The translations under genes were made by a program, and so were the position numbers. 64,000 nt of DNA from positions 10,164 through 74,163 of the forward strand of contig JBAZEY010000005.1 of assembly GCA_041653675.1 (NCBI GenBank), written 5' to 3'. The DNA is from Patescibacteria group bacterium (GTDB lineage Bacteria; Patescibacteriota; Patescibacteriia; XYB2-FULL-38-15). Every line of letters begins with the position of its first letter. Position 1 is the stretch's first letter. Under the pieces are notes generated by a model. It searched no databases and was not told where the DNA came from. It saw nothing but the letters and a program-made list of their open reading frames with translations. Positions 1,900 through 53,983 of the stretch are shown here, piece after piece.

Positions 1900-2358
1900 G
1901 TGAAGAGGATTCGTAGGGAAACCGCCCGCGTCGCCCGTCAGATGAGCGACGACATGGACGAACCGAGCATCCGGACCTGCTACCTAACTCTCTGGCCGCC
2001 CATTCCCATTTTCCCGGACTGCGAAGAGTGCCTCCAGGAAGCGCATATGTGCGGCGAATGCTGCGTGGGGTACCCGGTCGTCCATCGGGTTGATCTCAAC
2101 GACGACTACGACGCCACGATCGACGAGCCGTGCGAGTGCTACCCGGGCGTCCAGGCCTGCGTCTCGACGCCGTTGATGCCGCTCCCGCTCGACGAGATCG
2201 ACGGCGATGGCGATGGCTTCCTGGGCTGCGAGGAGTGCAACCCGGGGACGTGCACCTTCGAGTGCGGCACGGGCGTCCAGGCCCTCTCGGCCAGCGACGC
2301 CGACTGGATCTTGGACAAACACGAGCCGTACGAGATCGACGACGAATTCCCCAGCTGA
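1900..2358 (+). CDS. Hypothetical acidic Cys-rich protein (GC island 1), ~152 aa
   Basis: AGGAGG RBS 5 nt upstream of a GTG start. Strongly acidic with multiple CxxC/CEEC/CEC motifs. Coding GC is far above the flanking AT-rich DNA. I recognise no domain. Confidence 0.5.
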   Translation: MKRIRRETARVARQMSDDMDEPSIRTCYLTLWPPIPIFPDCEECLQEAHMCGECCVGYPVVHRVDLNDDYDATIDEPCECYPGVQACVSTPLMPLPLDEIDGDGDGFLGCEECNPGTCTFECGTGVQALSASDADWILDKHEPYEIDDEFPS

Positions 2359-2424: not shown

Positions 2425-3441
2425 TTATAAAATCAACATTGCATCACCAAACGAATAAAACCGATAACGTTTTTTAATTGCAATTTGATAGGCCTTATCT
2501 ATAAATTTCTTGCCAGCGAAAGCCGCGACGAGCATTATCAAAGTTGACTTTGGAACATGAAAATTAGTAATCAAAGCGTCAATAAATTTGAATCTGTAAC
2601 CGGGATAGATAAAGATATTTGTTTCGCCGCTTTTGGCGCGGACTTTCCCATCGCTGGCGCAGTGTTCCAAAACTCGCACTGTGGTTGTCCCGCAAGCAAT
2701 AATTCTTCGGCCATCTTGTTTCGCCCCATTCAATCGCAGAGCGGTTTTTTTATCCAATTCAAAATATTCGCTATGGATTTTGTGTTTTGTAATATCATTT
2801 TCTTTTACCGGCTGAAAAGTGCCGAGGCCGACGTGGAGCGTGATATATTCAATTCGCACACCCATCTTTTTTAATTTTGCCAATAATTTTTTTGTAAAAT
2901 GCATTCCGGCGGTTGGCGCGGCAACCGATCCCAATTTTTCCGCGAAGACAGTTTGATATTCCGTGCTTTTTGCCAGTCGCTTGATGTACGGCGGCGTGGG
3001 CGGCTGGCCAATTTTTAAAATTTTCTCCATCAGTTTCACACCACTTAAATTAAATTTTATAACCGCCGTGTCCCCTGCTCTTTTTACGATCTCTCCACCC
3101 AATCCGCGGCTAAATTTTATTTTCAAACCAATTTGTTTTACGACCGGAACAAAACCCACAAGACATTGCCACGATGCCGCTGAAATTTGTTTTAAAAGTA
3201 AAATTTCCACCTTGCCGCCGGTTTCCTTTTTTCCTATCAATCTCGCCGGCAAAACTTTGGAATTATTTAAAACCAAAACGTCGCCGGGACGTAAATATTT
3301 TCCGAGATTATAAAAGCTATCGTGAGCCATGGATTGCTCTCCACAATTAAGCACCATTAACCGGCAGGCGTCGCGCGGGTTGGCCGGTTTTTGGGCGATT
3401 AAATTTTTCGGAAGATTAAAATCAAATTCAGATAATTTCAT
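2425..3441 (-). CDS. queA: S-adenosylmethionine:tRNA ribosyltransferase-isomerase
   Basis: 338 aa. MKLSEFDFNLPKNLIAQKPANPRDACRLMVL... matches QueA over its full length. Confidence 0.9.
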   Translation of the reverse strand: MKLSEFDFNLPKNLIAQKPANPRDACRLMVLNCGEQSMAHDSFYNLGKYLRPGDVLVLNNSKVLPARLIGKKETGGKVEILLLKQISAASWQCLVGFVPVVKQIGLKIKFSRGLGGEIVKRAGDTAVIKFNLSGVKLMEKILKIGQPPTPPYIKRLAKSTEYQTVFAEKLGSVAAPTAGMHFTKKLLAKLKKMGVRIEYITLHVGLGTFQPVKENDITKHKIHSEYFELDKKTALRLNGAKQDGRRIIACGTTTVRVLEHCASDGKVRAKSGETNIFIYPGYRFKFIDALITNFHVPKSTLIMLVAAFAGKKFIDKAYQIAIKKRYRFYSFGDAMLIL

Positions 3442-4953: not shown

Positions 4954-5778
4954 CTATTTAGCCTTTTTAGGTCTTCCTCTTTTTTTCTTCTCTTTTTCTT
5001 CGGCTGGGGCTTCCCCCATTTCTTCTTCCGCGACTTCTTCTTTCACTTCCTCTTTTTCCTCAACTTTTTCCGGAACTTCTGCCCTTGAACCAACGCCATC
5101 CAAAAATAAATTAAAATGATCAATCAAAATCTGCGCGCTATGCTTTAATGCTTCTTCCGGAGTAGTTGTTCCGTCAGTTTCAATATCCAAAATCAAACGA
5201 TCGTAGTTTGTAATATCGCCAACGCGGACATTTTCTACTTTATACCCGATATTTTTAATCGGAGCAAAAATTGAATCAACGGCAATAGCTCCTAATTCCA
5301 ATTTTTCTTTTTCTCGCGCCTCAACCGGTAAAAATCCTCTACCCTGGCTTACAAAAATTTCCATTTCTAAATCGGCATTTTTGTTAGTCAAAGTAGCGAT
5401 GTGTAAATCTTTATTTATAATTTCTACATCAGATGATTCCAGAATATCCGCAGCAGTCGCTTCTTTTTCTCCCTTAGCTTTGAGGACTAGACGAACTGGT
5501 TCGGCTGAAAAAACTTTCAATCTAAGCTGTTTGATGTTTAAGAGAACTTCCACCACATCTTCTTTTACGTGTGGAATCGTGGAAAATTCATGCTGGACGC
5601 CTTTTATTTTAATAGCTGTCGCTGCCGCCCCCGGCAAAGAAGAAAGCATTACGCGCCGGATAGCGTTGCCCAAAGTCGTACCATAACCATAATAGCAAGG
5701 TTCAACTATAACCGTTGCTTCGTTTTTGTTTTTTCCTTTTTTGATTTCGATTTTGGACGGTAAAATAATTGGTTCCAT
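4954..5778 (-). CDS. rpoA: DNA-directed RNA polymerase subunit alpha, NTD only, with acidic/AT-hook-like tail
   Basis: The alpha-NTD (...GYGTTLGNAIRRVMLSSLPGAA...) is present. 274 aa. The C-terminus is EKVEEKEEVKEEVAEEEMGEAPAEEKEKKKRGRPKKAK instead of an alpha-CTD. Confidence 0.85.
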   Translation of the reverse strand: MEPIILPSKIEIKKGKNKNEATVIVEPCYYGYGTTLGNAIRRVMLSSLPGAAATAIKIKGVQHEFSTIPHVKEDVVEVLLNIKQLRLKVFSAEPVRLVLKAKGEKEATAADILESSDVEIINKDLHIATLTNKNADLEMEIFVSQGRGFLPVEAREKEKLELGAIAVDSIFAPIKNIGYKVENVRVGDITNYDRLILDIETDGTTTPEEALKHSAQILIDHFNLFLDGVGSRAEVPEKVEEKEEVKEEVAEEEMGEAPAEEKEKKKRGRPKKAK

Positions 5779-9794: not shown

Positions 9795-10853
9795 TTATTT
9801 TATAACTCCCCCGCCGAGCACTTCGTCTCCTTTGTAAAAAACCACCGACTGCCCCGCCGTAATAGCTCTCTGCGGCTTATCAAAAATTATTTTAAAATTA
9901 TTTTTTATTTTTTTAATCACGCACGGCGCTTCTTTATGTTTATATCGTATTTTTGCTTTGGCGCGCATCGGCAACTTTGGCGCGTGCCCGGCGATCCAGC
10001 TCACTCTTCCGGCTATTAATTCTTTTGATAATAATTTCTTTTGATCGCGGCTAACATATAAAACATTTTTTCCAGTATCAATTTTCACAACATACCACGG
10101 CCCGCCGCCGAGCGCCAATCCCCTTCTCTGGCCAATTGTATAGAATGGCAAACCGTCGTGCCCACCCAATTTCTTTCCACTTTCTAATTCTACAATTTTT
10201 CCACTTTTAACTTTCAAATATTTTTTCAAAAAACTTTTTAAACTTGCTCCCACAAAACAAACTTCCTGGCTGTCTTTTTTCGCGTGAACCGGCAAGCCGA
10301 ATTTTTTGGCCATCGCTCGCACTCGCGGTTTTACATAATCGCCTACCGGAAACAAAATCTGCTTTAATTTATCTTGCGTCAAAGTATAAAGAAAATACGA
10401 TTGATCTTTTTCTGGATCTTTTCCTTTTAATAATTTACCATTGATAACTCGCGCGTAATGTCCGGTCGCAACATATTCTGCACCCATTGCCCGCGCCTTC
10501 TTTAACAATTCTCCAAATTTTATAAACCTATTACACTCCACGCAAGGATTCGGCGTCCGTCCGGCCCGATATTCTTTCAAAAAATAATCTACCACCAATT
10601 TCTTAAACGGAACTTTCATGTTCAGCGTATAGATCGGAATTCCCAATTTTTGCGCCACGCGTCGCGCGTCGCTGTATGCCTCAAATGAACAACATTTATT
10701 CATCGCGCAACCTGCGCCGCTGGCCGACTCCGACCAAAACCGCATAAAAACGCCGACGACATCAAACCCCTGCTTTTTCAAAAGTGCGGCCGCGACCGAA
10801 GAATCAATTCCGCCCGACATTGCTACCATTACTTTTTCCTTTTTCTTCATCAT
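9795..10853 (-). CDS. mnmA: tRNA-specific 2-thiouridylase
   Basis: MVAMSGGIDSSVAAALLKKQGFDVVGVFM... has the PP-loop (SGGxDS) and MnmA-like length and body. Confidence 0.9.
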   Translation of the reverse strand: MMKKKEKVMVAMSGGIDSSVAAALLKKQGFDVVGVFMRFWSESASGAGCAMNKCCSFEAYSDARRVAQKLGIPIYTLNMKVPFKKLVVDYFLKEYRAGRTPNPCVECNRFIKFGELLKKARAMGAEYVATGHYARVINGKLLKGKDPEKDQSYFLYTLTQDKLKQILFPVGDYVKPRVRAMAKKFGLPVHAKKDSQEVCFVGASLKSFLKKYLKVKSGKIVELESGKKLGGHDGLPFYTIGQRRGLALGGGPWYVVKIDTGKNVLYVSRDQKKLLSKELIAGRVSWIAGHAPKLPMRAKAKIRYKHKEAPCVIKKIKNNFKIIFDKPQRAITAGQSVVFYKGDEVLGGGVIK

Positions 10854-10894
10854 AATAATTATCTAATCTTACAATAAATTATCTATAAAAACAA

Positions 10895-10940
10895 GAGATA
10901 AAAAACGCTGGCCATCGCGCCGTAACGCAATTTGGCCAGC
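10895..10940 (-). terminator. Intrinsic terminator after the GC island 2 ORF: CGCTGGCCA...TGGCCAGCG hairpin followed by T6 on the minus strand
   Basis: Inverted repeat and T-run read directly, downstream of the 10955 stop. Confidence 0.5.
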
Positions 10941-10954
10941 ACTTCGCCCTCCTC

Positions 10955-11785
10955 CTACTCGCCTTCCGCGATCTCCACGAGCCTGCGCTCGAAGGATCGC
11001 CGCTTCGGCTCCCGTTCGAGGTAACCGCACACGACCTTCTTGACGTTGAACATGTCGGGCAAATCGCCGACAAACCCGAAGAGCCCGCGGAGTCTTTCGA
11101 GCTGCACCTGCAGGGCGCGAGCGTAAACCAAGCCGTGCGAACGGCCCATGGTGAGAATCGTTGCCTCCGAGAAGCCGGGCCCCTTTTCCGGCATCTGCCT
11201 GGCCTCTGCGAGAATCAGGAGCGCCGCCCTTTCGGGATCCCCCGCCGACCCCCTCGGTGCGTAGCAGAAATTGATTGTGGCCGCACACTGGGCGTCGAAC
11301 CAATTTCCCGCCCGTGCTGCTTCCAGACAGTCCTCGCGTACTTGGGTCGCCCACTTCCCGAAAAACGTCTGCCGGTTCACCTTGGAGGTGTCGATCACCC
11401 ATTGCCAAGCGAAGACGGTCGGCGAGTTTGGGATGTCATAGACATGAATCAGGGCGTCACCCAACTCAGCCTTCATCGCCTCGAGGCGCGAATACGGCGA
11501 CAATCTCCAATAGTCCACCTTCTCGCAGCCTGCGATCTTGGCCTGGATTGCCGCCTCTTCCGGTGTAGCCCGCCGAAGCTTGGCCGACAGGTGGCCGTTT
11601 CCGGCGTCATGGCTCTCCACTTCCACTACAGGAAACCCCAGAGCTTTTCCCATGGCTTGGAGAACCTTGTGTTGATCGGCCGTGTACCATTCGAACCACG
11701 CGGCGGAGATCTCCTCTCCGACCGCACGGATCTCCCCGGAAATGTATTCACCTAGCGCGAACTTCACTTCACGATTTTCCGCCAT
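10955..11785 (-). CDS. Hypothetical protein (GC island 2), 276 aa
   Basis: AGGAGG RBS 8 nt upstream of the ATG (MAENREVKFALGEY...). ~60+% GC. The region is open in several frames, and this is the longest ORF with an RBS. No known domain recognised. Confidence 0.5.
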   Translation of the reverse strand: MAENREVKFALGEYISGEIRAVGEEISAAWFEWYTADQHKVLQAMGKALGFPVVEVESHDAGNGHLSAKLRRATPEEAAIQAKIAGCEKVDYWRLSPYSRLEAMKAELGDALIHVYDIPNSPTVFAWQWVIDTSKVNRQTFFGKWATQVREDCLEAARAGNWFDAQCAATINFCYAPRGSAGDPERAALLILAEARQMPEKGPGFSEATILTMGRSHGLVYARALQVQLERLRGLFGFVGDLPDMFNVKKVVCGYLEREPKRRSFERRLVEIAEGE

Positions 11786-11841
11786 TTTCTTTCCTCCTAA
11801 TGCTACTTTAATCTAAACAAACTTAAATTACAAATTTATTA

Positions 11842-11872
11842 AATAAAAAACAGCGGCGAAATGCCACCGCTA
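11842..11872 (-). terminator. Probable terminator after queH: AGCGGyG...CGCCGCT hairpin followed by T6ATTT on the minus strand
   Basis: Read directly. Stem is imperfect. Confidence 0.4.
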
Positions 11873-11883
11873 TATGAACCGGT

Positions 11884-12423
11884 CTATCTCATCGAATAAA
11901 TGCACCCGCAATAATTTTGCCGGTACAAACCCAAACGACGCGACTCTTTATCAGTTTCCACTTGCCCGCCGCCTTTTTTAAAATCTTCCGCCAAAAATTT
12001 TAGGCCAAATTGTTTTGCCCATTTTTCTCCGAGTGGATTTATTACCGCCGCTTTTTTATTCCGACCAACCGTCAGCGTTGAAGCAAAATACTCAAAATTA
12101 TTCTCTTTGGCATATTTTGCCGTTTCACCAAGCCGCAAACTAAAACACATCTCACATCTCTCGGAGCTTTCCGGATCGGCCTCATGGCCATGGACAAGCG
12201 CCAGCCACTCTTCCGGCTGATATTTTCCCTCGACCAATTCCACTTTCGCCTCGCCCGCCACCCGCCGCGCCGCTTCCAATCTTTTTTTATATTCTTCTTC
12301 CGGAGCGATATTTGGATTAAAAAAATATAACGTCACGTCAAAGTCAGCGGATAACTTTTTCGGTATCCACGCCCCGCAAACGCCGCAACATATATGTAAT
12401 AGTAATTTTGGCTTATCTTTCAT
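11884..12423 (-). CDS. queH: Epoxyqueuosine reductase QueH (DUF208 family)
   Basis: MKDKPKLLLHICCGVCGAWIPKK... has the N-terminal CCGxC cluster and C-terminal CGC, with QueH-like length. Confidence 0.75.
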   Translation of the reverse strand: MKDKPKLLLHICCGVCGAWIPKKLSADFDVTLYFFNPNIAPEEEYKKRLEAARRVAGEAKVELVEGKYQPEEWLALVHGHEADPESSERCEMCFSLRLGETAKYAKENNFEYFASTLTVGRNKKAAVINPLGEKWAKQFGLKFLAEDFKKGGGQVETDKESRRLGLYRQNYCGCIYSMR

Positions 12424-12473: not shown

Positions 12474-14639
12474 TTATTTAAAACCGTTATTCTTCTGATT
12501 CTGGCCGCCCGTTTTCGGCGGAAAATTTTGTTTACCTCCGCCCCCGCCCCCATTTTTCTTTTTTGCCTGACGCTCTTTTTCTTTTTCAGTCTTAAGGCAG
12601 GCCTTACAATAAACCGGGCGATTCGGATCGGGGTTGAAAGAAACCCGGTCCGACTTCCCGCAGGCAGAACAAGTTATTTCATAAGGAAATTTTTCCTCGA
12701 ATGTTCTTTTATCATCGCCCTTTCCCTTTTCTTTTTCTTTTTTTCCCTCTTCTTTTTTGATGGACAGGGCGGGAGGAACGGGCAACGCGGCCGGAGCTGA
12801 TTTTTTTTCTTCAAGAACAGCGGGCAGATTTTGCGGAATAGGCGCAATTTTCTTCTCGTCCGGTTCATCCAGATTTAAGGGCGACGGGACGTCTTCTTCT
12901 ACGATTGATTTTTGAGGGATATTTTCTTCTTGTTTTTTAACCAACACTCTTTTTTCTTCTCTTACGGGCTTTGGAACAAGCGGCGGCTGCTTTATTTTGA
13001 TATCTATATCAATTTTTTCCTTTGGTTTAATCACAACTTTCGGTGGACGAACAATTACGGTAGGCACAATAACTTCTTTTTGCACCTCTCGCTCTTCATT
13101 AAATTTTTCTCTTTTTTCCGGCTCTGATTCAAAAATTTTTAAGAAATTAACAGCTTGTACTTTTGATTTTTCCAAAATTGCTTCACGAGCGGTGATGGCG
13201 CGCTCTTCAAGCTCGACTTGCGACATTTCTGGTTTTTTCTTTTCTTCTACCTCTACTGCTACCGCCCCGCTTTTTATGCCTTCCGCTTCTTGTTTTTTTT
13301 CTTCAATTAATTTTTTAATCTCCGCCTCCAGTTCTTCGTCGGATTTTTCTTCAGTGCCGATAACCTGCATTCCGCTCCAGCGAATAATCTTTTCCTCAAC
13401 GATTTCCTTCGGCTTGGCGTAACGTTCCCGGGAAACGCGAATGACTTTATCTCTATTATCAGTCGGTCCCGTAACCGGTGGGAGACCCGACGCAGAAAAA
13501 GGCGTTGATGATACGCCATCAATCATCAATTTCATGTACGTATCGTATTTGGTCAAATTTACTAAATCTTCGGCCGTGAAAGTCGGCAAAAATTCTTTTT
13601 CCAAAACCTCGGCATCGGCCGCGCCAATCCGGAAAGCAACAATTGTTCCGACGTTACCAAAAACGGCGGCGGCAACTTCTTCGGCCAACTGTTCAATATA
13701 TTGATGGGCTAAAACTAAATTCAAACGATATTTTCTGGCTTCAGACAAAATATTGGCAAAACTCAAAGTAGCAAAATTTTGAAATTCATCGACATAAAGA
13801 TAAAAATCTTTTCTTTGGGGTTCTGGAATGTCCACCCGGCCCATGGCCGCCAACTGAATTCTTGTAACAAGCATATTTCCCAAAAGGGCGCTCGCGTCCT
13901 CACCAATCCGGCCTTTAGCCAAATTCATTATAAAAATCTTCTGGCTGTCCATAATTTCGCGCATATCAATTGTGGATTTCACCTGGCCGACAATATTTCT
14001 AACAATTGATGCCGATAAAAATTGACCAACCTTATTTTGGATAGGCGCGATCGCTTCCGTGGCGAACCTTTCATTATATTTGGCAAATTCATCAACCCAA
14101 AAAGCTTTGACAACCGGGTCTTTCAGTTTAAGAATAACTTTTTTCCGATAATCCCGGTCGGCTAACATTCTGTTAATTCCAAGCATGGTCGATCCCGGAC
14201 AATCCAAAAGCGCGAGAATTGTGTTATTCAAAATATATTCCATTCTGGCTGACCAAACATCAGGCCATATTTTTTTGAAAACTCCCATCATGCCCGAAGC
14301 AACAAGGTGTTTATATCTTGGATCAATAGATTCCAAAATATTAAAAGCAATCGGCCAGTCCAAATCAGCCGGATTAAAATAAACCACGTCGTTGATTCTA
14401 TCCGCCGGGATAAAATCAAGAATTTTTTCCGCCAAATCGCCGTGTGGATCAACCACGCCTACGCCGCGTCCCGCCCGGATATCGGAGATAATTAAATTCT
14501 CCAGCGTGGTCGTTTTGCCCATGCCGGTTTTACCGATGATGTACATGTGCCGACGGCGATCGTCGGTTTTAATGCCGAAACGTTTTCGAGCTCCTCGAAA
14601 ATTTGTTTCAGCAAATAATGCTACCTCCTCGTTTTGCAT
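12474..14639 (-). CDS. TraD/TraG/VirD4-like coupling-protein-type P-loop ATPase, with a ~330-aa K/E/P-rich tail, C4 zinc ribbon and Gly6 C-terminus
   Basis: Walker A HMYIIGKTGMGKTT, VVDPHGDL, Walker B-like FYLYVDEFQNF. Tail has ...CSACGKSDRVSFNPDPNRPVYCKACL...GGGGGGK. Paralogous to the C-terminal half of 56533-59199. Confidence 0.6.
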   Translation of the reverse strand: MQNEEVALFAETNFRGARKRFGIKTDDRRRHMYIIGKTGMGKTTTLENLIISDIRAGRGVGVVDPHGDLAEKILDFIPADRINDVVYFNPADLDWPIAFNILESIDPRYKHLVASGMMGVFKKIWPDVWSARMEYILNNTILALLDCPGSTMLGINRMLADRDYRKKVILKLKDPVVKAFWVDEFAKYNERFATEAIAPIQNKVGQFLSASIVRNIVGQVKSTIDMREIMDSQKIFIMNLAKGRIGEDASALLGNMLVTRIQLAAMGRVDIPEPQRKDFYLYVDEFQNFATLSFANILSEARKYRLNLVLAHQYIEQLAEEVAAAVFGNVGTIVAFRIGAADAEVLEKEFLPTFTAEDLVNLTKYDTYMKLMIDGVSSTPFSASGLPPVTGPTDNRDKVIRVSRERYAKPKEIVEEKIIRWSGMQVIGTEEKSDEELEAEIKKLIEEKKQEAEGIKSGAVAVEVEEKKKPEMSQVELEERAITAREAILEKSKVQAVNFLKIFESEPEKREKFNEEREVQKEVIVPTVIVRPPKVVIKPKEKIDIDIKIKQPPLVPKPVREEKRVLVKKQEENIPQKSIVEEDVPSPLNLDEPDEKKIAPIPQNLPAVLEEKKSAPAALPVPPALSIKKEEGKKEKEKGKGDDKRTFEEKFPYEITCSACGKSDRVSFNPDPNRPVYCKACLKTEKEKERQAKKKNGGGGGGKQNFPPKTGGQNQKNNGFK

Positions 14640-37589: not shown

Positions 37590-38522
37590 CTAGCGCTTCT
37601 TGCCGCCGCCGTTCGAGCCCTTCTGGCCGCCCTTGTGGCGCTTGCCGGCACCGAAGCGCGTGTTGCCCACGGCCAGGGCGAGTTTCCGGCGACGGTCCCA
37701 ACGCCGCGCTTCCCGCTCGGCGCGGCTGAGCTGCGGCTTCACCTCGGTCGCGACCGCCGGCTTCTTCGGCTCGGGCTGCTTCGGGGGCGAAACGACCTGG
37801 TCCGCGTCCTTCTTGTTCCGCCGCTCGATCTCCATCTGGGCGCCGCGGTAGTCGAAGAGTTGGATGCTCCTCAACGCCCCGGCCTTGATCAGGACGGCGT
37901 ACTGCTCGCGACAGATCCCGGCGACCGCGCGCTTGCCGTCCTTGTCCTTCACGATCGCGTAGCGCGTTACGAACTCGTCGTCGCGGTGGAGTAGGCAGTT
38001 CGGCACGCCGCAAACCACCCTACCCTTCTCGTCCCGGAGCGCCTGGAGCGGCTCGGCCGTGCCGACCACGACCGCCTTCCAGTAGTCCACGGCGGCGGCC
38101 TCGGCGCGGATCGCGGCGTTCCTCACGCCGACGATCCCGTAGAGCGCCCCGATCTTCATCAGGTGGCGGCGCTCTTCGGGCGACATCCGCCCCTCGGCGC
38201 AGGGGTTGCAGATCGGCTCGAAGCCCCAGAGCTTCAGACCGTCCCGCTCGATCTGGACGAGGAGAGCGAGCTTGATCTTGCCGACGGAGTTCCCGTCGGC
38301 GTGCCCGCACTTCGAGCAGACCCGCTTCGGCTTCGGCGCTTCGGTCACGACGATCGGGTCGTCGACCGGCTTCTCCGGCTCGACCGCGACCGGCTCCGCC
38401 ACCTCCGTCGTCATGGACGGCATGGCGGCGAGGACCATCTCTTCGTACTCTTCATCGGTCAGGTTCCCGAGGCCCGCCGACACCGGCACCACGATTCCCA
38501 TCGTCGTCTCCGCCATGTTCAT
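37590..38522 (-). CDS. Hypothetical zinc-finger protein with basic C-terminal tail (GC island 3), 310 aa
   Basis: AAGGAGA RBS 1-2 nt before the ATG (MNMAETTMG...). CSKCGH...CNPC and CGVPNC motifs. C-terminal ...RRWDRRRKLALAVGNTRFGAGKRHKGGQKGSNGGGKKR. ~65-70% GC by eye. Confidence 0.5.
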   Translation of the reverse strand: MNMAETTMGIVVPVSAGLGNLTDEEYEEMVLAAMPSMTTEVAEPVAVEPEKPVDDPIVVTEAPKPKRVCSKCGHADGNSVGKIKLALLVQIERDGLKLWGFEPICNPCAEGRMSPEERRHLMKIGALYGIVGVRNAAIRAEAAAVDYWKAVVVGTAEPLQALRDEKGRVVCGVPNCLLHRDDEFVTRYAIVKDKDGKRAVAGICREQYAVLIKAGALRSIQLFDYRGAQMEIERRNKKDADQVVSPPKQPEPKKPAVATEVKPQLSRAEREARRWDRRRKLALAVGNTRFGAGKRHKGGQKGSNGGGKKR

Positions 38523-45787: not shown

Positions 45788-45837
45788 TTGACAAGTTACT
45801 AAATATATTCTATTATTAAAAGTCCACAATTTTGTGG
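45788..45837 (+). promoter_or_regulatory. Island 4 cassette 1 promoter TTGACA-N17-TATTAT plus operator-like palindrome CCACAA-tt-TTGTGG (45824-45837)
   Basis: TTGACAagttactaaatatattcTATTATtaaaagtCCACAATTTTGTGG read directly. Followed by AGGAGA RBS and an ATG at 45862. Confidence 0.55.
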
Positions 45838-45861
45838 GATGGGATAGAGGAGAAAGAGTCC

Positions 45862-46194
45862 ATGAAACTCAAGCCGACCGTCTTAGAATTGCAGGTGTTG
45901 GAGCTGACTGAGTACATGAGACTCAAGCCGACCAACATCACCTTGGGCGCGGGTTGCGTGATCGGTTTCTACCGGAACGAACGTTGCATCGTGGTTATGC
46001 CCGAATCGGGCAGCGGAGTTCGGATCGACTGGCCGGGCACAAACGACGACAAGCGGATCGCGCCTCCGTGCATCAAGACGGAGAAGGATTTTCTCGACGT
46101 CGTCAATCTCTTCGCCGCGATGCTCGGTCTCCAGGCCGTCCCCGACAGCTTCGAGCGGCCGTACGGGATCGCCCTTCGCCTCGTCAAGCGGTAG
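45862..46194 (+). CDS. Hypothetical protein (GC island 4, cassette 1), ~110 aa, with duplicated N-terminal MKLKPT/MRLKPT
   Basis: RBS GAGGAGAaagagtccATG. 21-nt repeat ATGAAACTCAAGCCGACC / ATGAGACTCAAGCCGACC in frame 54 nt apart. GC-rich. No domain recognised. Confidence 0.45.
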   Translation: MKLKPTVLELQVLELTEYMRLKPTNITLGAGCVIGFYRNERCIVVMPESGSGVRIDWPGTNDDKRIAPPCIKTEKDFLDVVNLFAAMLGLQAVPDSFERPYGIALRLVKR

Positions 46195-46240
46195 CGGACA
46201 GAACAAGTCGTAAAACGGTTTGCAAACATGCGAACTGACC

Positions 46241-46268
46241 GAGAGCCTTCGACAAGCTCTCTTTTTTA
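46241..46268 (+). terminator. Terminator GAGAGC-CTTCGACAA-GCTCTC followed by T6. Identical copy at 46890-46919.
   Basis: Read directly. Preceded by the shared 15-mer AACAAGTCGTAAAAC. Confidence 0.65.
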
Positions 46269-46281
46269 TTTAAAGCCGATC

Positions 46282-46331
46282 TTGACAATTTGCTAAATAT
46301 CTGATATTATTCAATGTCACAATTTCGTGAC
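46282..46331 (+). promoter_or_regulatory. Island 4 cassette 2 promoter TTGACA-N17-TATTAT plus operator-like palindrome GTCAC-aatttc-GTGAC (46316-46331)
   Basis: TTGACAatttgctaaatatctgaTATTATtcaatGTCACAATTTCGTGAC read directly. Near-identical in layout to 45788-45837. Confidence 0.55.
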
Positions 46332-46869
46332 TAGAAAGAAGGAGGCCGTGCGCTACTTGTTCATTCCGAGTTGCGAAGTGGCGATGAAGAATGTGCTGAC
46401 TGGCACGACTACCGAAAAGCGCCTCATCCGCGGCCTCGATCTTTGGCGGGCAGGCGGCTACGACGCCATCATCGTGACGGGCGGCATCTATTTGCCGCCA
46501 GAACAACAGACGATCCCCTCGGGAATCTTGATGGAATACTGGCTCATCGAGCACGGTGTGCCAGAGAAGGCCATCATCTGCGAAGATCACTCACGCGATA
46601 CCTTCGAAAACATTTCTGGCGCCCTGACACTCATCGCCGACGACCCCGCGCCAGAATTCACGGTCGTGACCCACTGGCAGCACGCGCTGCGGTTCTGGGT
46701 AACCTTCCACCTCGCGCACCGGCGCAAGATTCGCCTCGTGCCGATGTGGTACTGGACCGATCTCAAGGGTTTTGTGTTGGAGTGGGCATTCCTGCTCGTA
46801 CATCTTCTCGATCGAAACGGAACCGGCCGGATCGCCACTCGGAACCGCGACAGTCACAACAAGTCGTAA
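46327..46869 (+). CDS. DUF218 (YdcF/ElyC/SanA-like) domain protein (GC island 4, cassette 2). True start probably downstream of the AAGGAGG at 46339-46345 (TTG 46356 or ATG 46384).
   Basis: DUF218 hallmarks ...YDAIIVTGGI... and ...CEDHSRDTFEN... GC-rich. The coordinates given are the track ORF. Confidence 0.5.
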   Translation: MTRKKEAVRYLFIPSCEVAMKNVLTGTTTEKRLIRGLDLWRAGGYDAIIVTGGIYLPPEQQTIPSGILMEYWLIEHGVPEKAIICEDHSRDTFENISGALTLIADDPAPEFTVVTHWQHALRFWVTFHLAHRRKIRLVPMWYWTDLKGFVLEWAFLLVHLLDRNGTGRIATRNRDSHNKS

Positions 46870-53909: not shown

Positions 53910-53983
53910 TGGCTCGGGGACTTGGATTCGAACCAAGATTACCAGGGCCAGAACCTGGCGTCCTGCCATTAGACGATCCCCGA
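53910..53983 (-). tRNA. tRNA-Gln (anticodon CUG), 74 nt, CCA encoded
   Basis: Manual fold: acceptor TCGGGGA/TCCCCGA, D-arm CGTC-TAATGGCAG-GACG, anticodon arm CCAGG-TTCTGGC-CCTGG, T-arm CTTGG-TTCGAAT-CCAAG, discriminator G plus CCA. Confidence 0.8.

Follow-up and report, generated by a model that had tools for sequence, protein, structure and literature searches.

A horizontally acquired gene between queH and mnmA in a Patescibacteria clade and its probable part in conflicts over tRNA damage

The locus studied here raises the question of what a GC-rich orphan gene does between two tRNA-modification genes of an ultra-small bacterium with a far lower GC content. It lies in a 64,000-nt stretch of DNA (hereafter the window) of a Patescibacteria group bacterium (assembly GCA_041653675.1, contig JBAZEY010000005.1, positions 10,164 to 74,163), where a preliminary description had placed a foreign, self-contained gene of no assignable function between mnmA and queH. 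All of these points were upheld. The genomic context of its homologs indicates that the encoded 276-aa protein probably acts in conflicts over tRNA damage, and the best reading, held with moderate confidence, is that of a horizontally acquired cassette whose family is linked to tRNA damage and repair. Coordinates refer to the window unless a related locus, labelled L, is named.

The gene and its slot between queH and mnmA

The coding sequence (CDS) of the 276-aa orphan protein extends over 10955..11785 on the minus strand, starts with ATG, and is supported by the list of open reading frames (ORFs), by homologs, and by the ratio of non-synonymous to synonymous substitutions (dN/dS). The N-terminus of the protein, MAENREVKFALGEYISGEIRAVGEE, is the same as that quoted earlier. 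The gene has a GC content of 60.4% compared to 42.0% for the remainder of the window, and its GC at third codon positions (GC3) of 74%, compared to 43-44% in mnmA and queH, marks it as an outlier in codon usage. In 200-nt windows, GC was 0.55-0.65 over ~10900-11800 and 0.38-0.44 in the flanks, in agreement with the abrupt composition shifts reported near 10905 and 11790. The cassette proper, with promoter-like site, ribosome-binding site (RBS), ORF, and terminator, spans ~10900 to 11833 on the minus strand. From the earlier span of 10869-11800, the island as such stood, while its start at 10869 did not, being the end of an ORF in an alternative frame. Long ORFs of 179, 206, and 97 aa occur in other frames of the locus, as its reported readability in several frames had implied, and are by-products of the high GC content; the 276-aa frame is the real one, since homologs and dN/dS single it out.

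The RBS AGGAGG, already recognised in the preliminary description, is located at 11793..11798 (minus strand), 7 nt 5' of the ATG. A promoter-like site inferred from sequence (TTGTAA, 17 nt, TAAAGT) lies at 11805..11833 on the same strand and was not called by the consensus promoter scan. The 5' region of the window cassette is common to L003, and L001, L002, and L014a carry TTGACA, 17 nt, and TAAAGT in place of the TTGTAA version. The cassette ends in an intrinsic terminator at 10900..10940 (minus strand), a two-tier hairpin with U-tract identified by folding and by comparison of eight copies, which corresponds to the CTGGCCA...TGGCCAG plus T6 element described before. It begins 14 nt after the stop codon, with the stem at 10940-10907 and the U6 at 10905-10900. 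The fold reached -24.5 kcal/mol (z = -4.2), with none of 200 shuffles equally stable, and the full hairpin pattern occurred once in the window compared to zero occurrences expected from shuffles.

Four orthologs from the candidate phyla radiation (CPR) were 66-88% identical to the window protein. Against its orthologs, the 276-aa gene showed a dN/dS of 0.13-0.24 at synonymous divergences (dS) of 0.66 to above 1.5, and by this measure it is translated in the 276-aa frame and under purifying selection. Between the window and L001, dS amounted to 0.66 for the gene and 0.68 for mnmA; since these values match, the gene co-diverged with its flanks, at least in this closest pair.

Relatives L020-L023 were found by scanning GTDB species representatives with the MnmA of the window. 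Their MnmA was 79-85% identical to that of the window and their gene order was virD4-queH-orf99-mnmA-alaS, with the 276-aa gene missing and an ORF of ~99 aa (orf99) between queH and mnmA. The same arrangement without the gene was found in L062, L063, L065, and L066. Counting L020-L023, L062/L063, and L065/L066, at least six related lineages have orf99 alone in the slot and lack the gene there. The 276-aa gene alone occupies the slot in the window, L001, and L002, while orf99 and the gene occur together in L003. The slot of L014 carries orf99, a 284-aa paralog, a 275-aa paralog, and a 72-aa ORF (orf72), and that of L008 the 284-aa paralog and orf72. In the window, the gene is present as a single copy, and both orf99 and orf72 are missing. 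Across these loci, the slot measured 0.3-2.7 kb and contained one to four single-ORF cassettes, the GC content of the cargo being 57-61% for the family, 60% for orf72, and 52-56% for orf99, compared to 40-47% in the hosts.

Judged by composition and distribution, the gene is a horizontally acquired, accessory gene in a variable slot of one Patescibacteria (CPR) clade: foreign because of its GC (60% vs 42%) and GC3 (74% vs 43%), and accessory because it is present or absent in the same slot. Single-gene horizontal transfer and islands have been documented in Patescibacteria (PMC12455944). At the slot borders, no recombinase was found in the Pfam lists of the flanking genes and no direct repeats in the junction alignments. 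Integration at a tRNA gene was rejected, as none lies near the slot, the only tRNA of the window being located at 53910-53983.

In L014, three of the four cassettes end in a 42-nt element nearly identical to the terminator of the window, GCUGGCCAAAUUGCGYWACGGCGYRAUNGGCCAGC plus U6-7, the fourth, that of orf99, in a different hairpin, and TTGACA follows every terminator except the last. Among eight copies of the terminator, 96% of cells were paired compared to 15-42% with slid partners, and compensatory (two-sided) changes occurred at three pairs; coming from eight related copies only, this covariation gives moderate support. A U-G pair was present in six of the eight copies, corresponding to a C-A mismatch on the opposite strand. 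Because of the paired structure and the sense-strand-only U-G pair, the element is regarded as an RNA-level intrinsic terminator and not as a DNA recombination site. Rfam gave no match in 10700-12000. The hairpin was also considered as a dispersed mobile repeat or attC-like site and rejected as such: in a metagenome scan with its 5' half, true copies were found only in the L014 contig, and the other nine matches, without 3' arm and T-run, were GC-rich CDS encoding LAKLRxG.

Between L001 and L014a, identity was 79% over the 75 upstream nt and 77% over the 60 downstream nt, compared to 61% at the nucleotide level in the CDS, for which shuffles gave a baseline of 55-57%. Between the window and L001, the CDS was 82% identical and the upstream region only 64%. 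By these comparisons, the history of the coding sequence differs from that of the regulatory frame around it: the cassettes have promoter and terminator modules in common, while their coding sequences diverge or are replaced much faster. As a further element of this kind, a module of ~55 nt precedes the family gene in L002 (4275-4330) and the second paralog in L014 (9876-9932). Its two copies are ~86% identical, and that of L014 contains a perfect 12-nt inverted-repeat core (GGAAATAAAATT / AATTTTATTTCC).

The MnmA of the window was 89, 85, and 82% identical to that of L001, L003, and L014, respectively, and its QueH 79 and 77% identical to that of L003 and L014. Identities of the island protein among CPR genomes were 81, 72, 68, 41, and 31%, with the window protein 81% identical to L001, 68% to L003, and 41 and 31% to the two paralogs of L014. 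Compared with the flanking core genes, the coding sequences of the slot diverge far faster. The tandem paralogs Xa and Xb shared 28-33%. CPR copies were mutually 28-43% identical, compared to 35-44% between CPR and non-CPR copies. Neighbour-joining recovered the window group and the L014a/P0008 pair with 100% bootstrap support each and their joining with only 44%, while L014b branched outside all other members, including the copies from phage contexts. Two explanations fit these data equally: alleles may be replaced again and again through recombination of the conserved frame with an outside GC-rich pool, or the CDS may diverge extremely fast in place. Recurrent input from a GC-rich pool is favoured because the GC content of the cargo stays high though low-GC family members exist (38-40% in L007 and L009).

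The small ORF that shares the slot was characterised as well. Orf99 usually fills the queH-mnmA gap of the clade, yet it is missing from the window, L001, and L002. It encodes ~99 aa with invariant C45, C47, H59, and C63 (a CxC...H...C pattern, possibly zinc-binding) and has its own TTGACA promoter-like site and its own terminator. Its 34 clusters, all of 66-102 aa, are clade-restricted, the source names given being Patescibacteria only. Loci are L014 8575-8874 and L003 2300-2605, and it also occurs in L020-L023 and L062-L067. Between queH and orf99 of L022, a MITE-like (miniature inverted-repeat transposable element) insertion at 5307-5438 consists of 20-nt inverted repeats (90% complementary) around 92 nt, and a second 20-nt inverted pair follows at 5442-5545. 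The insertion is further evidence that the slot takes insertions. L020 (OZ246416.1, an 886-kb chromosome) and L022 (CAYZNO010000022.1) carry the label 'uncultured Gammaproteobacteria bacterium', which looks wrong given the MnmA identity of 79-85%, the virD4-queH-orf99-mnmA synteny with metagenome-assembled genomes (MAGs) of Patescibacteria, and a genome size (0.89 Mb) in the range of the CPR.

Homologs beside RNA ligases and the orphan family

Homologs of the window protein outside the CPR were 36-44% identical to it. Those with an informative gene context occurred in operons with RNA-repair ligases in two unrelated phage-like elements. The P0006 cluster is located in an element of 63% GC that was seen in several samples. 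Its gene order is a 59-aa ORF, the homolog, a 271-aa ORF, RtcB (PF01139, E = 1e-88), and a UDP-glucose dehydrogenase, with a tyrosine integrase farther on. The TAG of the 59-aa ORF is directly followed by the ATG, the homolog and the 271-aa ORF share an ATGA overlap, and a gap of 6 nt leads to RtcB. At least 22 tRNA genes (15 upstream and 7 downstream) accompany these ORFs, including Ser x4, Leu x3, Arg x4, Pro x3, Lys x2, and Gln x2, and the element further encodes a cRec-domain protein (PF20274), an R2K ATP-grasp protein, and one ORF with a strong PHROG match. Loci of the element are L005 639-4051, L058 15-3427, and L057 5132-7703. The element, which was not found in IMG/VR by a pattern scan, resembles a large temperate phage or integrative element equipped with a complete set of genes for the supply and repair of tRNA. 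Its 271-aa ORF (L057 953-1768; L058 9914-10729) has a transmembrane segment at the N-terminus, a middle part of coiled-coil-like character, and a C-terminus rich in Cys. It matched no family, and the island protein is unrelated to it (hhalign probability 0.3%).

The P0009 cluster occurs in contigs of 40% GC that also carry a head-closure/HNH-like ORF and a DNA-ligase fragment. Here, a T4-type Rnl1 (PF09511, E = 5e-23; phrog_562, E = 3e-51) is followed by an 86-aa ORF with an ATGA overlap and, after a gap of 10 nt, by the homolog. The ligases of the two elements are non-homologous, no other common gene was detected between the RtcB and Rnl1 elements, and an all-against-all BLAST of neighbours in CPR and phage contexts gave no conserved partner gene. 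Among 50,697 phage records, 448 contained an RtcB-like ligase and 43 a relative of this Rnl1. The double operon linkage is very unlikely to be a coincidence, since both ligases are rare and non-homologous and the elements are otherwise unrelated. This association with RNA-ligase operons holds for the phage-like homologs and not for the copy of the window. Published comparative genomics presents such a combination of RtcB or Rnl ligases with cRec and tRNA arrays as the means by which phages respond to host nucleases that cleave the anticodon loops of tRNAs (PMC7824862; also PMC12409363).

The protein itself is a member of a very small orphan family for which neither a known domain nor a relative in fold could be recognised. 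The window protein had no match in Pfam, NCBIfam, or PHROG, and the PADLOC defence models gave zero families at E up to 1. None of nine family members matched Pfam or NCBIfam, and PDB sequence searches with the single sequence and the profile remained without a match. With no housekeeping homolog in Pfam, NCBIfam, or PDB, the earlier remark that no motif could be placed was borne out. Six clusters were recovered among 5.8 billion by a word-indexed search and seven representatives at E <= 1e-3 among 1.84 billion by exhaustive phmmer, while an alignment-based search added no new members. None were found in IMG/VR, GTDB representative genomes, annotated phages, or plasmids, and the family is annotated as hypothetical in every source.

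A confident AlphaFold2 model (predicted local distance difference test, pLDDT, 88.8; predicted template modelling score, pTM, 0.81) showed two domains, an N-terminal alpha/beta domain (~1-135; beta3-alpha-beta2-alpha-beta-alpha-beta2) and an all-helical C-terminal domain (~138-274). The N-terminal domain modelled in isolation had the same topology at a pLDDT of 86.5. Foldseek detected no fold relative (best E = 0.09, template modelling (TM) score at most 0.31) and no match to the Archease, RlaP, cRec, 2H, or PNK/HAD folds. No membrane segment was predicted by inspection, and the window protein is mildly acidic, with an isoelectric point (pI) of 5.9. Invariant across nine members are E77, D132, S134, W145, R215, and Q226, and at about fifteen more positions a polar or aromatic residue is kept in eight of the nine. 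Three assignments were tried and rejected: an NCBIfam match to MnmH (E = 0.055, 12 bits compared to a cut-off of 266) is noise, a 2H phosphoesterase (HxS, residues 65-67) is contradicted by a non-invariant H65, the missing second motif, and the missing fold match, and a kinase-like fold, which appeared as weak recurring Foldseek matches with a TM of at most 0.31, lacks its motifs in the nine-sequence alignment.

Proposed role and competing explanations

As proposed here, phages would use the family, together with the repair and supply of tRNAs, to counter the anticodon nucleases of their hosts, and a CPR lineage would have captured the gene from a GC-rich mobile pool and retained it as a protection of its own tRNAs from tRNA-cutting toxins. 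The favoured mechanism would be that of a cytoplasmic, non-catalytic tRNA- or nuclease-binding protein that, acting alone, shields the tRNA or blocks the nuclease. A non-catalytic binder is favoured because the gene occurs without a ligase at the CPR loci, the two phage ligases are mechanistically different, and no catalytic motif is found. The gene is located between the gene for the last step of queuosine-34 and the gene for 2-thiolation of U34, near alaS. Queuosine-modified tRNAs are the targets of colicin E5, and modifications of the anticodon loop affect the binding of the tRNA-Lys anticodon nuclease (PMC7466049). Gamma-toxin cleaves tRNAs with mcm5s2U34, the mcm5 group being needed for efficient cleavage (PMC2275089). 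The thematic fit of the gene's position with Q34 and s2U34 is suggestive.

Several observations weigh against this proposal. The position between queH and mnmA may be incidental, the unrelated orf99 being the usual occupant. The mild acidity of the family (pI 4.8-7.0) is atypical of RNA binders, and about 20 conserved polar or aromatic positions leave room for an enzymatic role. No RNA ligase was found in the 64-kb window or in the related CPR loci. The phage nature of both elements is inferred from PHROG matches, the integrase, and the tRNA arrays, while the family was not found in IMG/VR or annotated phage records. L007, a third non-CPR context of 3 kb, shows no ligase.

Two alternatives accept a function of the protein but assign it elsewhere. 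An enzyme of RNA-end healing or tRNA modification, either kinase- or phosphoesterase-like on broken ends or altering the anticodon loop, was ranked second and is considered unlikely. The Rnl1 operon would suit such an enzyme, as Rnl1 requires 5'-P/3'-OH ends and the 11.6-kb contig shows no PNK; end healing is unnecessary for RtcB. The invariant or near-invariant residues E77, D132, S134, R215, Q226, S67, R71, T74, K83, K144, and D152 point in the same direction, though the paralog L014b lost many conserved residues. The succession of a beta-rich N-domain and a helical C-domain in ~280 aa resembles the layout of APH(4)-Ia, NahK, and choline kinases, whose N-lobes recurred as weak local Foldseek matches. 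These matches did not exceed the E and TM values given above; the strands of the N-domain lack an invariant Lys, HxDxxxxN and DFG-type motifs are missing, and the C-domain has no beta-strands. For a phosphoesterase, the HxS at H65-S67 is not invariant and a second 2H-type motif is missing. A serious rival, somewhat less unlikely than the enzyme, is a protein evolving under an arms race in conflicts that do not involve tRNA, for instance a binder with a function in immunity, anti-toxin activity, or anti-defence. Its proximity to RNA ligases and tRNA genes would then reflect only that accessory genes cluster in phage genomes. Polymorphism in presence and absence, diverged paralogs in tandem, and fast turnover of the CDS in a conserved regulatory frame would be expected of such a protein, as would a stand-alone cassette without conserved partner gene or catalytic signature. 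The operon linkage (ATGA overlaps and gaps of 0-10 nt) to two non-homologous RNA ligases with base rates of at most 1% argues against it, as do the lack of a PADLOC match and of an adjoining toxin-like gene in any context.

The remaining two explanations deny the gene a function or even its existence in the host. A neutral or decaying passenger ORF left by a past transfer, without function in the CPR host, would account for the orphan status, the strongly atypical codon composition, and the absence from many relatives, but it is highly improbable given the low dN/dS over the large dS reported above, a frame, RBS, and terminator that are intact in all five CPR lineages, and the compensatory changes in the terminator. 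The chimeric joining of GC-rich foreign reads into a CPR contig during assembly or binning, suggested by a MAG as source and by the abrupt GC boundaries, is effectively refuted: the same junctions with orthologous flanks were found in independent JGI, Logan, NCBI, and ENA assemblies from different samples, and the synonymous divergence of the gene follows that of mnmA. A bolder form of the tRNA-related reading, which is rather doubtful, would make the protein the founder of a new fold family whose members, acting alone, protect tRNA or inhibit anticodon nucleases. These proteins would be deployed by phages beside ligases and would have been captured by a CPR lineage that swaps alleles in a fixed promoter-terminator frame between the genes for Q34 and s2U34, the wobble modifications of the classical target tRNAs of anticodon nucleases.

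Cleavage of tRNA is used widely among bacteria, both in immunity and by toxins (PMC12409363, PMC7824862). Countermeasures known so far are repair ligases, end-healing enzymes, and phage-encoded tRNAs. If the proposed role in conflicts over tRNA damage holds, the family would add a new, structurally unclassified component linked to two ligase types to the toolkit against tRNA damage, and a phage-type gene for tRNA conflict would be kept under selection in a CPR bacterium. CPR bacteria have minimal genomes and a poorly known repertoire of defence and toxin resistance. The slot represents a compact mode of cargo turnover, in which modules are constant and the coding sequences in between are replaced or diverge.

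Moron-like cassettes and variable hotspots are already known kinds of loci. Morons are self-contained extra genes of lambdoid phages in the sense of Hendrix and colleagues. The cassette resembles them as a single ORF with its own promoter-like site and terminator, with atypical composition, with a position between genes that are (nearly) adjacent in relatives, and with an origin in a phage-associated gene pool. Unlike a moron, it is located in a bacterial chromosome with conserved virD4-queH and mnmA-alaS-ribosomal flanks, not in a phage or prophage, and belongs to a multi-cassette slot with common promoter and terminator modules. Variable accessory or defence hotspots between core genes likewise have conserved flanks and cargo that varies in content and copy number, evolves fast, and is compositionally foreign, whereas the slot is tiny (0.3-2.7 kb), PADLOC-negative, and without recombinase, tRNA gene, or direct repeats at its borders.

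With integron arrays, the slot shares tandem single-ORF cassettes that each end in a conserved imperfect hairpin. In contrast to integrons, the hairpin is a terminator (U-tract, sense-strand-only G-U) without attC core sites and was not found at other loci, each ORF of the slot is preceded by a promoter-like site (TTGACA/TTGTAA) while integron cassettes have no promoter of their own, and no integrase occurs within ~10 kb in L014. The accessory proteins of RNA ligases (RlaP, cRec, Archease, and PNK-HAD; PMC7824862, PMC12776372) resemble the family in forming operons with RtcB and ATP-grasp Rnl1 on mobile elements that also carry tRNA arrays and cRec, but the family lacks sequence or fold similarity to them and a catalytic motif, and it stands alone in CPR chromosomes. 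The APH/choline-kinase fold corresponds in size and gross layout and recurred among the weak Foldseek matches; with a TM of at most 0.31, E of at least 0.09, and its catalytic motifs absent, the protein is not a member. New are the unclassified protein family, its double operon linkage to RNA-repair ligases, and the compact CPR slot with conserved promoter and terminator modules.

Flanking genes and other GC-rich patches

On the minus strand, a virD4-like gene and then queH precede the cassette, which is followed by mnmA and then alaS, and the placement between two tRNA-modification genes was confirmed by profile matches. The upstream core gene queH, encoding epoxyqueuosine reductase, is located at 11884..12423 (minus strand; PF02677, E = 1.1e-62). 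Its intrinsic terminator at 11840..11873 (minus strand), with a 10-bp stem, a tetraloop, and a T-run, was found by the terminator scan, at 11873-11850, directly upstream of the cassette, where it had been reported before, and separates queH from it. The downstream core gene mnmA, encoding tRNA 2-thiouridine(34) synthase, extends over 9795..10853 (minus strand; NF001138, E = 1.3e-133). A scan placed a promoter-like site for mnmA (TAGATA, 16 nt, GATAAT) at 10858..10885 (minus strand), just 3' of the cassette terminator, and the junction sequence between this terminator and mnmA is kept in L001, L002, and L014. In relatives, identities ranged from 77 to 89% for queH and from 79 to 89% for mnmA.

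A homolog of the VirD4/TrwB-type coupling proteins (721 aa, with a C-terminal zinc-finger region) is encoded at 12474-14639 (minus strand), its family being taken from the Pfam list of the L014 ortholog. It is located directly upstream of queH in all relatives with 71-80% identity and is core synteny, not island cargo.

Further GC-rich patches occur in the window. At 1900-2358 (plus strand), a sharp island of ~64% GC holds a single 152-aa ORF with a pI of 4.05, 13 Cys, and no Pfam match. It directly adjoins a queA-like gene (2425-3441, minus strand; by sequence inspection) and would be a second foreign islet beside a gene of the queuosine pathway. The strongest GC island of the window, with 69-70% GC over ~900 bp, lies at 37590-38522 (minus strand) and contains a basic 310-aa ORF (pI 9.4) without a significant Pfam match (PknG rubredoxin at E = 0.026, below threshold). 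A GC patch of 53-60% at 45832-46869 (plus strand) carries a 120-aa ORF and a 180-aa DUF218 protein (PF02698, E = 4e-18). Jointly, these islets suggest a genome dotted with single-gene acquisitions from GC-rich donors.

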